Part shown: positions 1-6,000 of the stretch, one piece after another | Layout: each line of letters opens with the position of its first letter | Numbering within the stretch: position 1 is the first letter of the stretch | From: a virus | Taxonomy: Duplodnaviria; Heunggongvirae; Uroviricota; Caudoviricetes | Length of the DNA stretch: 52,005 bases | Reading direction: 5' to 3' (one strand) | Virus record (IMG/VR): IMGVR_UViG_2534681674_000035 | Position numbers: made by a program

Positions 1-3000
1 ATGCCCCTAAATGATATGCAGATTCGCCGTGCTAAACCTGAAGCTAAAGCCTATACACTTGGGGATGGGCAAGGGTTGTCTTTACTTGTAGAGCCAAATG
101 GAAGTAAAAGCTGGCGATTTCGTTATCGCTATGCCGGTAAACCCAAAATGATCTCGCTTGGTGTTTACCCAACGATCACTCTTGCTGATGCTCGTTCCCG
201 TCGTGATGAAGCTCGAAAACTTGTGGCAGAAGGAAAGAACCCTAGTGAGGTTCGAAAAGAGCAAAAGCTGGCTCTGCAAACAGAGTCAGAGAACGCCTTC
301 GAAAAGATAGCCAGAGAGTGGCATCAACAGAAGTCTACCAAATGGTCGGCGGGATATGCATCAGACATCATGGAAGCGTTTAAGAACGACATTTTTCCTT
401 ATGTGGGAACAAGGCCAGTGGGAGAGATTAAACCGCTAGAACTGCTTAATGTGCTGCGTAAAATCGAAAAGCGCGGAGCATTAGAAAAAATGCGCAAAGT
501 TCGGCAGCGATGCTCAGAAGTTTTCCGCTATGCCATTGCTACTGGAAGGGCTGAGTTTAACCCTGCTGCGGATCTTTCAAGCGCCCTCAATGTACACCAA
601 TCAAATCATTTCCCGTTCTTAAAGGCTAATGAGATACCTGATTTTCTTCGCGCCTTAAACGGATATACCGGAAGTCGGCTTGTCCTGATTGCCACGAAAT
701 TGCTCATGATTACAGGTGTTAGAACCATCGAATTACGTGCGGCATTATGGTCAGAATTTGATTTAGATAACGCTATTTGGGAAATTCCTGCTGAAAGGAT
801 GAAAATGCGCAGATCACACCTTGTGCCTTTGTCGACTCAAGCGTTAGATTTGCTAAATGAACTCAAGATGATGACAGGGAAGTATAGTTATGTTTTTCCG
901 GGGCGGAACGATCCGAACAAGCCTATGAGTGAGGCGAGTATTAACCAAGTTATCAAGCGTATTGGTTATGGTGGAAAACTTACTGGTCATGGATTTCGAC
1001 ATTCCTTATCTACTATCCTCCACGAAAAAGGATATGATTCGGCTTGGATAGAAATACAGCTTGCTCATATAGATAAGAATAATATTAGAGGTACGTATAA
1101 TCATGCTCAATATATTGATAAACGCCGTGATATGATGCAGTGGTATTCAGATTATATTTTTATTAAGGAGAATGTGAATGAGTAACGAGTTTGATAGTAG
1201 TAAACTAGAAAATTGCTTTGAGCTTGCATTGGAAAATATTATAAAGCACGGCGATACAGATATTTTCCCTTACCCATTTGAAAGTCGGTTATTTGAAGAT
1301 GATAAGGAGAAAGTAAAAACTGCATTAATGCAAACATTTAATGACTTTGAAAATAAAAGGATCGAGATTCCACCAAACATAATTAATAGCTTTTCAAGTA
1401 TTGGTTATTATGGTTACAGGTGGGCGACCCAAATTGATCCATTCTGGAATGCTTTTTTTCTTGGGTTAGTTTTAAAAATCGCTGATGATATTGAAAGGAA
1501 TAGATCTACTAAAACGCAGGTTTATTCATATCGCTTTAAACCAAACCTTGCTGATGGTTCTCTTTTTGATAAAGAGATCTCTTGGAGAAAATATCAAGAA
1601 GACAGTATCTCTGAATGTTCTAACGATGAAATAAAGTATGTACTTACATGCGATATAGCAGATTTCTATCCGCGTATTTATCACCACCGTTTAGAAAATG
1701 CGTTAGATAGAGTAGACCCCAATAAAGATTACTCTGGGAAAATCAAGAAATTACTACAGACATTTAGTGAAACAAAATCATATGGAGTACCAGTTGGATG
1801 TCCTGCCTCTAGAATATTAGCAGAACTAGCTCTAGATTCTATTGATAAATTATTGTCTATGAATAGAATCAACTATAAGCGTTATGTCGACGACTTTGTT
1901 ATTTTTTGTAACTCTAGAGAGGATGCTCATAAGATTTTAACTTTGCTTAGTAAAAAACTGATGGAAAATGAAGGGCTAACTTTACAGAAACAAAAAACCA
2001 ATATTGTTACTAAAGAAGAGTTCCTTTCAGTAACTAAAGCTAAGTTGCATGGTAATGATGAAGATGAAGAATCTCCTATGAAGGCTAAATTTATGAGTCT
2101 TCCTATAAGATTCGATCCTTACTCAGCAAATGCGATAGAGGAATATGAAGAGATAAAGGAATCTTTAAAAGATTTTGACTTGTTAGCTATGCTGAGTAGT
2201 GAGTTACAAAAATCAAAAATTAACCAATCTTTTAGCAAGCATTTGATAAAGGCATTCTCAGCAACATCAGATGAAATAATAAGTAGTGCTTTCAAAGTAA
2301 TGTTTAATAACTTGCATGAGTTATATCCAATATTTACAACTATAATTCAAGTAGCTAACTCCAACTGGCAAAAATTAAGCACAGAAACCAAAGATATTAT
2401 TCTTGATAAAATAACTGCACTAATTAAACAAGATTCATATATTTTGAGTACTGAGCTCAACTTAGCCTATGTAGCCCGAATGCTCTCAAAAGAAAATTCA
2501 GAAAAATCCACCCTAATCCTTAGTGAAATATACAATAACAATCCAGAAAGCATCTTAGTCAAGAACATAGTTACACAGTCAATGGCAAAAATTAATTCTT
2601 ACGCATGGCTTTCTGATATCAAAAAAAATTTCTCTGCAATGCATCCGTTGCAGAGAAGACTATTGATCGTTTCCAGTTACATCTTAGGTGATGAAGGACG
2701 GCACTGGAGAGAGCATAATAAGAAAACATTCAACTTTGTAGAGGTGATTTACAGGGATTGGGCAAGTAAAAGGCATACCGCAAGAAATCTTGAGGATGCG
2801 CTATGATATCTGAATTAACGTTTTCTCGAAAATTCACTTCATTTTGGAATCAATTGCTTCCAAATGCTAATAATTTCATACGCATCATTAACGGCAGTCT
2901 CATCGAGGACGTTTATCCTCCTCTAGATGACTGCGCTAATAGGTCAAATAACGTCTTTGTCAATGAGTGCGCATTTAATTTATATAGGGCAATACAGAAT

Positions 3001-6000
3001 GATTCGTTAGACAGAAATATTCTTTCAGCACATGATATCTTCCATAATGCTGATTTTCAGGTTGTTTTTGAAAAAACAAAAGAATATCTACAGCGGTTCG
3101 CTTACGGTTCTAACTTCAAGCTACCCTTAAGCATGGTTGAGTACAATGCCATAAGGGAAATAGCAAGAAACATTTTGTCTCGATATGGAATGGAAAACCA
3201 AATTGAAGTGTCTCCACAATTCGATGGATGCGGAGTAATAAATAATTCATATGGCGATATTTATTATTCAAATGTTCTTGTGGAAATAAAATCAGGAGAT
3301 AGGAAGTTTAGTGTTTACGATCTTAGACAGGTGCTAATATATTTCACTTTAAACTTTTACTCAAAAAACAAAAGAAACATCAAGAGATTTGAGCTTTTCA
3401 ATCCTCGGATGGGTATCACTTATAGTGATACCATTGTCAACCTTTGCAAAGAGTTGGCGTTTATTCAACCTGAAGAATTGTACTTTGAGATAATGAATTC
3501 TATTACAGAAGAAAATTTCATAGTAACTGAAATGCAACGCTAGATATCATGCAGACCGCTACAATCCATTGTAGTGGTCTATTTCTAAAAGTTCCTTCTG
3601 ACGAATAAAGCCAAAATACCAAATAGAATTAAAGAAAATTATAATATCAGCCTTAGCGCGCAATGCTCCCCCCGCCACGCCCGCCCGCTTTGCGGGGCGG
3701 TTTTAATGCAGTTGTACTGACGCGCTCAGACCGCGCCGGGAATGGCGCGGTTTGCAGAAAATGAGGCAGGAAAACGCATGCAAAGCCATGCACCTTATCG
3801 ATGCATGGCTTTTTTCAGTAAAAACGGGCGGATTTTCGGGGAGTTTTACACAGACTGATGTGATGCCAGTTGCGCACTTTTACGCGAAAAAATCATGTTC
3901 TGCGCAGGAGTGAATTTTTCACGGCTGTCATCCACCGAAGCCGCGTCAGGCCTGAATCCGATGGCCGTTAAAATGTCGCTATCCTGTGCGGAATAATTAA
4001 TTTTTTCCCCCTTCGCAAGCCAGGACAGAAGGGCTTCACGCAGGGCATCTGTGGCACGCTGTATGGCACAGTTTCGGGCAATGGCCGTCAGCTCACTGTA
4101 GCCCATCAGCCCCGGTGCCAGTGCCGCCGCCAGTGCTGTGCCGTGCTGCTGCATAAAATCATTCAGCCGGTCGCGGATGCTGATGTGCTGAACGGCTTCA
4201 TGCGAACGAATATAACGACCGGCGGCCTGATTCACCTGCCATTTTCTGACTTCAATAATATTGCGTAATTCGTCCAGGCGACTGACGTTTCTGCCTTCTC
4301 CTGACAGAAGCCGCAGGTATTCCTGTTCGGCCGCTGCCAGCTCATTTTTGCGTTGCAGCCATGCTGCTTTGTTATTCTGACAGGTGTCAAAGGCCTGCTG
4401 TAAGGCTGTGCTTTCCATCGTTATCTCTTTCTCATCATGCTGAAGAATAAAAATACGGTGTGCGGCGACGGCCGGGGTTAACCGGCAGCCCTCATTCCAG
4501 ACGCAGCGAATATGATTGTGTTTTTAACCGTACTGGCGGCAGTTCCTGTTTTTCATGCAGGCTTTCTGCCAGTTCGTCCGGCGTGACCGGGCGGACAATG
4601 AAACGGTTGATGGTCTGAAGCGTTTTAAACACCAGACCACAGCCCAGATCCGTGCACAAATAAAAACGCTCGGTGACTTCCTGAGACAGACGCCTCGATG
4701 TTCTTGACAGTGCAAGGCCTTTACATCTCCGACAACAATATCCGGTAACAAGCATTCTTTTCGGGCGTTTCATACTGCCGGAGGCTGACGTCAGTGAATC
4801 GCGGTATCTCTGTTTGCCTGAAATGTATTCCATTCCTGAATCTTTACTGTCAGAGAAAAAGCTTTCACTCGCTTCAAATGTCGCAGAGCAATAAATATTC
4901 CGGCACTGTGCAATCATTATCTTGGTGCCATCGTCCATGAAATGTGCGCGGCGGGTGTGAGCAACATGTCCACACGACGGGCAGTAAATCATGACAGCAG
5001 TCCTCTGGCCTTAAGCTCTGCACCCTGCTGGTCTATTTTGTCCTGCCACACCTTGCGCTGTGCCGGTGTGCCTGCCACCTCATAATCCATGTGCGGGAGT
5101 GTTGCCACTGACAGTCCGGCCAGCCGGAGAACCGGCTCACCGCTGAGGCTGATTTGCATCTGTTTAATTTTCTGTTCCAGCGATGATTTCACCTGCTGCA
5201 TGACAGCCTTTTCCGGCGCGACGTAGCCCTGATGGCCGGTGGTGTTGGCGAGCGGATTTTCCTGTACCAGGATGCTCAGATGCATTGCCCGGACAAGCGC
5301 CTCACAGGTTTCATTCAGGGCGTGTTCCAGCTCATGCTCTGCATACAGACTCAGAAGGTGATGATGTGCCTTCCGGTAGGCGGTGGCCGTGCTGTCACAC
5401 GCCCCTTTCAGGCGTTCACGTTCGAAATTCAGCACCACGGCCAGATTGTCATATTCCTGTACCAGCTCCCGGCGTGCCACGCGCTCAATGTGGCGCTGTT
5501 TCAGCTCGTCGCTCAGGACACCACCGGCTGCACGAAAGGCCGTGCGCCAGTCGTCAGCGTCGTTTCCGTCGGCCTGCGTCAGCGCATTTTTTTCCTGCTC
5601 TGCCCGTTCAATGGCCGTGACGGTCTCATCCATCAGGCGGGCGTTCTCAAGGTGGGCGGCTCTGGCCTTTTCCAGTTGTGCCAGTGCGGGTTGCAGATAT
5701 TCAGGGATGGTGTTGTCAGACATTTTCCGGCTCCTCGTCACTTCAGGTTGAGAAAATTGTGACGTACACCGGACAACAACACGACGCATTGCAGATGTGC
5801 CAGCCCTGACACAGGAGACTCATCCTCAGACCGGCAAGCCAGGAAAAGGTCGCAGGAAAAACCGGCTTACTGTTTGTTTTTTTATATTTTACTGTTCACC
5901 TCTGTTCACCATAAGAAAAAAGATAAGTAATACAGTAAGTTAAAGGGTGAACAATCGCAGTAATGACTGTTCACCGTCTGTTCACCCGTTGATGGGCTTT

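Follow-up and report, generated by a model that had tools for sequence, protein, structure and literature searches.

A DRT type 8 reverse transcriptase and its predicted RecB/Cas4-branch nuclease partner form a two-gene cargo of a P4-like satellite

The window analysed here is the whole 52,005-nucleotide stretch of IMG/VR virus record IMGVR_UViG_2534681674_000035 (Caudoviricetes). At its left end, a reverse transcriptase (RT) gene and a partner gene lie between the integrase and psu genes of a P4-like satellite, with the following features.

1..1185, + strand: tyrosine integrase of P4-like type, flanking the cargo hotspot on the left (Pfam Phage_int_M, Arm-DNA-bind_3, Phage_integrase)
1178..2806, + strand: predicted Drt8/UG7 class 1 UG/Abi reverse transcriptase, 542 aa (PADLOC Drt8; Pfam RVT_1, E=1.2e-18)
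1883..1894, + strand: catalytic YVDD of the RT, residues 236-239 (V237, D238 and D239 invariant in the RT alignment)
2803..2806, + strand: ATGA, where the stop of the RT gene overlaps the start of the nuclease gene (kept in 16 loci and 2 distant loci)
2803..3543, + strand: DRT8 partner, predicted soluble Cas4/RecB-like PD-(D/E)xK nuclease, 246 aa (PADLOC RTasPDDEXK, AF2 model, Foldseek)
3256..3291, + strand: predicted nuclease motifs II and III, D152 ... E161-I-K163 (conservation across 240 sequences; model strands 153-155 and 158-162)
3328..3342, + strand: predicted nuclease motif IV, QxxxY (Q176, Y180), which marks the RecB/Cas4/Dna2 branch (both 240/240; helix 171-185)
3400..3414, + strand: family-specific turn N200-P-R-x-G204 (N200 240/240, P201 238/240, R202 237/240, G204 234/240)
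3681..3700, + strand: GC hairpin with a T-run after it, resembling a terminator, 3′ of the nuclease gene (within the stretch common to other P4-like elements)
3846..4418, - strand: psu, polarity suppression protein, which flanks the hotspot on the right (phrog_6366, E=5e-100; RefSeq annotation)

The region is organised as a P4-like int-psu variable region, with conserved flanks, cargo between them and content that varies among strains. The hotspot is bounded by int on one side and by psu, delta and sid on the other, and the integrase adjoins a tRNA-Thr in NZ_CP027587. Homology to other E. coli P4-like integrases ends at about 1113-1148; homology to other P4-like elements breaks off at about 1116-1148 and restarts at about 3631-3657, and in those elements the slot holds different contents, for example an AAA ATPase plus HNH, or HEPN. 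DRT8 is here a two-gene cargo cassette (about 1150-3630) with int on one side and psu on the other, within a P4-like satellite integrated at the E. coli tRNA-Thr. The cargo is present in 104 of the 1339 E. coli genomes that match part of window positions 1-4500, most of which match through the int or psu flank, and about 2% of complete E. coli genomes have the cassette in this hotspot.

The RT (WP_000064054.1) matches the PADLOC Drt8 model across profile positions 4-492 of 493 (E=4.9e-166, 551.9 bits), and the second-best PADLOC model, RT_UG21, reaches only E=1.2e-37. By profile assignment, it is a class 1 UG/Abi RT of group UG7. Its catalytic YxDD motif is intact, and 141 of its residues are invariant among 15 orthologues.

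Directly 3′ of the RT, the partner reading frame yields the 246 residues read in the initial annotation, including D152, E161 and K163, all three of which fall within residues 151-163, GDIYYSNVLVEIK. The partner had also been described as lacking a membrane segment, in agreement with a top 19-residue Kyte-Doolittle window of 0.84 against a usual transmembrane threshold of about 1.6; at this maximum, a membrane effector is rejected. The protein matches PADLOC RTasPDDEXK end to end (E=5.5e-69, residues 1-239 on profile positions 1-224 of 226) and is assigned to the RT-associated PD-(D/E)XK family, also termed cluster 17.

By itself, the motif string is weak evidence and not significant, as D-x(6-20)-[DE]-x-K, taken as a bare pattern, turns up in 46% of shuffles of the partner sequence. 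It is conservation that makes the motif significant. D152, E161 and K163 are invariant in an alignment of 47 sequences with identity down to 33%, and in a broader alignment of 240 sequences with a median identity of 29% they are retained in 240, 239 and 240 sequences, respectively, while Q176 and Y180 are retained throughout. The family comprises 1021 representatives at 50% identity, and further conserved features are peculiar to it, namely an invariant MISE N-terminus, a PxFxGCG motif and the NPRxG motif. D152, E161 and K163, together with Q176/Y180, are the predicted metal-binding and catalytic residues of the partner.

The AF2 model of the partner is confident (pLDDT 91.4, pTM 0.88). D152 opens one strand, E161/K163 lie on the next and Q176/Y180 sit in the helix after that, so that the motif residues occupy the canonical beta-hairpin and its ensuing helix. 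The D ... (D/E)xK residues are thereby distributed over consecutive beta strands (153-155, 158-162), as the alpha-beta-beta-beta-alpha-beta core of PD-(D/E)xK enzymes requires, and QxxxY falls within helix 171-185 after the ExK strand, as the RecB/Cas4-like branch requires. The initial annotation had named structure prediction and a sensitive profile search as ways to probe the fold, and an unrelated fold as an outcome that would tell against it. The structural part of this check held up: Foldseek against the PDB retrieves Dna2 (prob 0.95-0.99), Cas4, 3ijm (restriction-endonuclease-like), MGME1 and AdnAB as best matches, with modest scores against these solved structures (best E=2e-3, TM 0.3-0.4). 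An HMM profile search of PDB sequences found no solved relative and gave only chance matches to interferon gamma. Among viral models (BFVD), 14 matches at E<1e-3 carry the names Cas4 family exonuclease, PD-(D/E)XK, RecB family or helicase-nuclease, and PADLOC Cas4a2 matches partner residues 149-194 weakly (E=0.021). A Pfam search of the partner and all 47 aligned homologues returned no nuclease family, the best matches being noise (CPDase, E=0.18, and Bac_DnaA_C); an NCBIfam search of the partner gave no match and a PHROGs search no meaningful one. Collectively, the PADLOC family, the AF2 model with its Foldseek matches and published active-site mutants support the reading of the partner as a PD-(D/E)xK nuclease.

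The partner shares motif II (D), motif III (ExK), motif IV (QxxxY) and their secondary-structure placement with the Cas4/RecB/AddB/Dna2/MGME1 branch, which also supplies its best structural matches. In contrast to that branch, it lacks a four-cysteine Fe-S cluster and any Cas4, PDDEXK_1 or other Pfam sequence match, and its companion is an RT instead of Cas1/Cas2 or a helicase. Among the cysteines of the family, conservation reaches 95% at C143 and at most 59% in every other Cys column, so that C143 alone counts as conserved, and the four cysteines that ligate a [4Fe-4S] or [2Fe-2S] cluster in Cas4, AddB and Dna2 'iron-staple' nucleases were not found in the partner. Cas4 proper is rejected because these cysteines are absent, and the protein is filed as Cas4/RecB-like only. 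Sequence and model together indicate a soluble protein of restriction-endonuclease fold that belongs to the RecB/Cas4/Dna2-like branch, is free of Fe-S and has predicted nuclease activity.

The two genes appear to be tightly coupled. The partner ATG (2803-2805) overlaps the RT TGA (2804-2806), as originally read, and the RT lies directly upstream of the partner on the same strand with the ATGA overlap in all 18 loci compared (the window and 17 further). These loci span Enterobacteriaceae to Alphaproteobacteria and Planctomycetales MAGs and include non-P4 contexts, and most of them carry a GAGG-like Shine-Dalgarno sequence some 8-11 nt 5′ of the ATGA. The data support an obligate RT-then-nuclease order and translational coupling through the conserved overlap. 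When the flanking ORFs of 15 loci were compared all-vs-all by BLAST in search of a conserved third gene, only the RT and the partner were found in common. The search for a conserved flanking ncRNA yielded nothing past about 70 nt beside the RT start, in close relatives only, and none downstream; Rfam gave no match over positions 1-4000. Both genes have a GC content of 0.33-0.34, from which the flanks differ.

This RT and partner pair is assigned by sequence to a published phage-defence system, DRT type 8, and is already known rather than new. Mestre et al. (2022, NAR 50:6084; PMC9226505) described the UG7 RT with a 'cluster 17' PD-(D/E)XK partner, reported protection from T5 and found UG7 in P2/P4 variable regions (P4 satellite hotspots). 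Defence by the UG7 system was lost with RT active-site mutants and with PD-(D/E)XK nuclease active-site mutants (PMC9226505). Both proteins of the present pair are full-length PADLOC matches, the gene order and P4-satellite location are alike, and no substantive difference from the published system is seen. AbiA-HEPN, UG22+HEPN, the DRT7 RT-PrimPol, the DRT1 RT-nitrilase and retron RT plus effector systems, whose effectors are separate or fused, follow the same logic, in which the RT polymerase and the hydrolase effector site are both required; the effector fold of the DRT8 partner differs from theirs. Known DNA products and triggers exist for DRT1, DRT4, DRT7, DRT9 and DRT10 but not for DRT8, whose 'dedicated mechanism' was described as 'not yet established' in a May 2026 review (PMC13213688).

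UG/Abi RTs of classes 1 and 3 synthesise DNA that is protein-primed and template-free (PMC13275509). By analogy with class 1 AbiK, Abi-P2, DRT4 and DRT7, the UG7 RT may make protein-primed, untemplated ssDNA. Almost every structural relative of the partner is a nuclease with ssDNA ends or flaps as its substrate. We propose that the partner nuclease is the executioner, and that the RT, with its DNA product, restrains it or is coupled to it. Infection would free the nuclease, DNA would be degraded, and phage replication would be halted through abortive infection or direct DNA destruction. Taken as a whole, it is likely that the partner is the nuclease subunit of DRT8 within P4-like satellite cargo and serves as the executioner coupled to the RT.

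The main competing explanation is that the nuclease is a processing factor that trims or releases the protein-linked ssDNA of the RT, with the DNA product or the RT itself causing defence. Dna2, Cas4, MGME1 and AdnAB process ssDNA ends and are not bulk toxins; Cas4 trims prespacers and Dna2 trims flaps, and in DRT4 and DRT10 the accumulated RT-made ssDNA is the toxic or signalling species and is exonuclease-controlled. The processing explanation also draws on the many UG7 RTs that lack a nuclease, about half of those described (165 members; PMC9226505), and because of this the RT alone may defend, the nuclease then being accessory. Against it stands a DRT8 in which the Cap17 ATP-nucleosidase (PNP domain) 'replaces the usual nuclease effector' (bioRxiv 10.1101/2023.01.24.525353). 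Cap17 is an abortive-infection effector with no DNA-processing role, and because it can occupy this slot, the partner position is read as an effector slot, which favours the original suggestion that the partner is the likely effector. A processing role is, on balance, improbable. Loss of defence in the nuclease active-site mutants (PMC9226505) is compatible with effector and processing models alike.

Two further explanations assign the partner no catalytic or no shared function. The PD-(D/E)xK superfamily commonly includes inactive members, and neither a Pfam family nor a solved structure is detectable from the partner sequence, so that the protein could be imagined to serve the RT without catalysis, as a scaffold of restriction-endonuclease fold or as an adaptor that binds DNA. 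The near-complete invariance of its five motif residues at such low median identity and the abolition of defence by the published active-site mutations (PMC9226505) make this very improbable. Likewise, P4 hotspots often stack unrelated defence genes, and the partner might be an independent nuclease gene, unrelated in function to the neighbouring RT; the persistence of the ATGA-linked pair in all 18 loci, across distant taxa and outside P4 contexts, its status as the only two genes conserved there, and the equal GC content of both genes, unlike that of the flanks, leave this explanation a negligible prospect.

A more novel reading is a retron-like 'DNA antitoxin' logic, under which the partner would not simply be a toxin that is switched on. 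Single-stranded DNA built by the UG7 RT on itself would keep the Cas4/Dna2-like partner bound or be threaded through it; in this RT-linked form, the DNA would serve the nuclease as a decoy substrate or would inhibit it. Phage proteins of ssDNA metabolism (an SSB, recombinase or exonuclease) could strip the RT-linked DNA and release the nuclease, while the invariant MISE N-terminus and the NPRxG turn might provide RT- or ssDNA-docking surfaces. This proposal in its entirety, release and docking included, is speculative and rather unlikely. If true, a PD-(D/E)xK effector would here be regulated in a new way, and the DRT8 mechanism would be solved.

Although the present pair reveals no new kind of system, our analysis adds the placement of the partner in the RecB/Cas4 branch (QxxxY) without Fe-S cysteines, the ATGA overlap in 18 of 18 loci, and the finding of no conserved third gene or ncRNA. 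Assignment to an ssDNA-processing RecB/Cas4/Dna2 branch lacking Fe-S, and strict two-gene coupling without an ncRNA, provide constraints for future work on the DRT8 mechanism. Annotation of the partner could also be improved, since neither Pfam nor NCBIfam covers it; sequence-only reading identified the nuclease correctly even though RefSeq names it (WP_000622599.1) 'hypothetical protein'.

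Sequence profiles decisively identify the reverse transcriptase (RT) and its partner as a DRT8 pair, that is, a UG7 RT with a PD-(D/E)XK protein. In PADLOC, the RT matches Drt8 with the whole model covered (E=4.9e-166) and the partner matches 'RTasPDDEXK' over residues 1-239 (E=5.5e-69), with weaker, partial matches to the candidate family PDC-S61 and to Cas4a2 at about residues 145-217. RVT_1 is the sole Pfam match in the 542-aa RT, and Pfam, NCBIfam and PHROGs returned no family for the partner.

Genes of the cassette and the adjoining integrase (ORF listing)
1-1185, + strand: integrase (int), 394 aa
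1178-2806, + strand: RT, 542 aa
2803-3543, + strand: partner, 246 aa

The initial annotation had described the partner as PD-(D/E)xK-like, without a membrane segment, and with a start codon overlapping the RT stop. Translation of 2803-3543 places D152, E161 and K163 where it had put them (residues 151-163, GDIYYSNVLVEIK), and the tetranucleotide ATGA at 2803-2806 is common to the partner ATG and the RT TGA. No transmembrane helix is expected in the partner, whose top 19-residue Kyte-Doolittle window is 0.84, and the protein is predicted to be soluble. The motif string alone is no evidence for a nuclease, since D-x(6-20)-[DE]-x-K, taken literally, also turns up in 46% of shuffled partner sequences; the weight must therefore rest on conservation and structure.

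A word-indexed search recovered 96 homologues of the partner at 33-89% identity, almost all of 240-249 aa and unnamed. A profile search run exhaustively against 1.84 billion representatives extended the family to 1021 members at E<=1e-3, including 323 at E<=1e-30; with few exceptions the members are stand-alone, about 235 aa long, and match from the first residue. D152, E161, K163, Q176 and Y180 are invariant in a 47-sequence alignment. In a larger alignment of 240 sequences, whose median identity to the query is 29%, D152, K163, Q176, Y180, G142 and N200 are present in every sequence and E161 in 239. Q176 and Y180 form a Q-x3-Y that follows the ExK strand, which in RecB-family nucleases is the signature of motif IV. 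Three family-specific motifs that lie apart from the canonical RecB set are nearly invariant: an M-I-S-E N-terminus (residues 1-4, window 2803-2814), PxFxGCG (138-144, 3214-3234) and NPRxG (200-204, 3400-3414), which are candidate RT-docking or ssDNA-binding surfaces.

A confident AlphaFold2 model of the partner, computed from the 47-sequence alignment, reached a mean pLDDT of 91.4 and a pTM of 0.88.

Elements of the AlphaFold2 partner model
Residues 1-128: N-terminal helical region
Residues 153-155: strand, directly preceded by D152
Residues 158-162: strand with E161, K163 lying just beyond
Residues 171-185: helix with Q176 and Y180

The model has two more strands, and the predicted fold is a canonical restriction-endonuclease core. 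Among solved structures, Foldseek ranked the Dna2 nuclease domain first (E=1.9e-3 and 6.2e-3, probability 0.95-0.99), followed by type I-C Cas4, by 3ijm ('restriction endonuclease-like fold'), and by MGME1, AdnAB and DXO/Rai1. Predicted viral structures gave 14 matches at E<1e-3, of which those with names are Cas4 family exonucleases, PD-(D/E)XK nucleases, helicases of UvrD type or helicase/exonucleases, and two Pithovirus proteins annotated as AP-endonuclease; DUF2800 and a RecB family exonuclease fell just above E=1e-3. The predicted core and the Dna2, Cas4 and 3ijm matches support the restriction-endonuclease fold and, together with the RTasPDDEXK match and the invariant active-site residues, bear out the nuclease reading of the initial annotation. 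The active site is intact, invariant and of RecB/Cas4 type. The partner shares motif IV QxxxY with RecB/Cas4 nucleases but lacks Fe-S, and belongs to their QxxxY, Fe-S-free branch.

Scanning a single genome for each species yielded 15 loci with a partner homologue, in taxa that include Citrobacter, Brenneria, Pseudoalteromonas, Thalassospira, an alphaproteobacterial MAG and a Planctomycetales MAG. A UG7-type RT (34-97% identity) ends exactly at the partner start, with the ATGA overlap, in all 15; two more distant members, looked up singly, have the same arrangement, giving 18/18 with the window. All-vs-all comparison of flanking ORFs across loci found no third conserved gene, no conserved non-coding element was found in the DNA flanking the pair, and Rfam had no match in window 1-4000. 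Together, these results define a strict two-gene cassette, in which the partner is always encoded alongside the RT and coupled to it in translation. Decay seems to have set in at some loci: the partner ORF of Brenneria bubanii (L003 6001-6591) is cut down to 196 aa, and the RT of an alphaproteobacterial MAG (L016 4351-6004) lies in two ORFs of 247 and 279 aa. A distant metagenomic DRT8 locus (L018 1568-4081) carries a GmrSD-type (type IV restriction) gene 46 nt downstream from its nuclease gene, which fits a setting in defence islands other than P4 satellites.

The DRT8 system has already been described. Mestre et al. [quoted passage not shown] UG7 gave robust protection against T5 and was named DRT type 8; mutations of the RT catalytic residues, and likewise of the PD-(D/E)XK active site, abolished defence (PMC9226505), and both activities are thus needed. 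The pair in the window is the same system, a UG7 RT and PD-(D/E)XK partner in a P4-like satellite, and this experimental validation supports the reading of the partner as a nuclease. Remaining interest in the pair is limited to its biochemistry. Our analysis adds the QxxxY, Fe-S-free RecB/Cas4 placement, the universally conserved ATGA coupling and the three family-specific motifs.

Our literature search found no dedicated DRT8 mechanism paper, and a May 2026 overview states 'dedicated mechanism not yet established' (PMC13213688). Where class 1 UG/Abi RTs have been studied, their product is protein-primed ssDNA made without a template (PMC13275509, PMC13213688), and by analogy the DRT8 RT would do the same. 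Given this, and since the substrates of the partner's relatives are ssDNA ends or flaps, the nuclease probably works after the RT and its DNA product, under their regulation, and probably destroys DNA on infection. The main rival to this effector role is that the nuclease only processes the RT product, and that the DNA itself is toxic or acts as the signal, for which DRT4 and DRT10 are precedents. Against this stands a DRT8 in which a Cap17 ATP-nucleosidase 'replaces the usual nuclease effector' (Rousset et al., bioRxiv 10.1101/2023.01.24.525353), a swap that supports an effector role for the partner slot. The invariant catalytic residues and the 18/18 coupling effectively rule out both an inert scaffold and a neighbouring gene unrelated to the RT.

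The element carrying the cassette is a P4-like satellite. E. coli 2013C-4974 (NZ_CP027587) contains a 100% identical copy of window 1-4500, in which the integrase lies just downstream of tRNA-Thr. Downstream of the cassette, on the opposite strand, are psu, an ogr/delta-like gene and a sid-like gene, followed by an AlpA-like regulator and an icd-like gene, with a P4 alpha-type primase in the reference genome. Of 5426 complete E. coli genomes, 1339 match window 1-4500 in part, usually in the int or psu flank, and only 104 carry the whole cassette. Homology to other P4-like elements stops at about 1113-1148 and returns at about 3631-3657, and the same slot elsewhere holds, for example, an AAA ATPase plus HNH or a HEPN protein. 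GC content is 33-34% in the cassette, against 45% in int and 54% in psu-sid. The RT ORF starts at 1178, inside int, which stops at 1185, so that the two share 8 nt, and both the fall in GC and the end of homology to other P4-like integrases lie within the final 40-70 nt of int; the hotspot boundary is thus inside the 3' end of int, and the C-terminus of the integrase is specific to the cargo. A consensus scan found no sigma-70-like promoter on the + strand of 600-1178, and the cargo may therefore be transcribed by read-through from int.

Judged by its matches, the window is a mosaic relative to NZ_CP027587. Positions 1-7419 match the P4-like element at tRNA-Thr (5.22 Mb) and 7082-31000 a lambdoid prophage at 2.78 Mb; the overlap of about 340 bp (7082-7419) is the P4-like gene WP_001244670.1, which lies beside IS3 at both reference loci. 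The satellite in the window thus lacks its alpha primase and runs directly into DinI-like, NleG and lambdoid structural genes, the junction at this repeat being either a real recombination or an assembly join. An isrK / C4 antisense RNA / c4-a1b1 target module (Rfam, above gathering score) occurs twice, at 6591-6875 (+) in the expected immunity region of the P4-like element and at 37471-37666 (-) within a lambdoid prophage segment. A tRNA-Thr(TGT)/tRNA-Asn(GTT) pair lies inside prophage-like sequence at 33253-33408 (-), and an IS3-family element at 44561-45871, with an ALIL frameshift pseudoknot at 45419-45535, interrupts a second lambdoid region.
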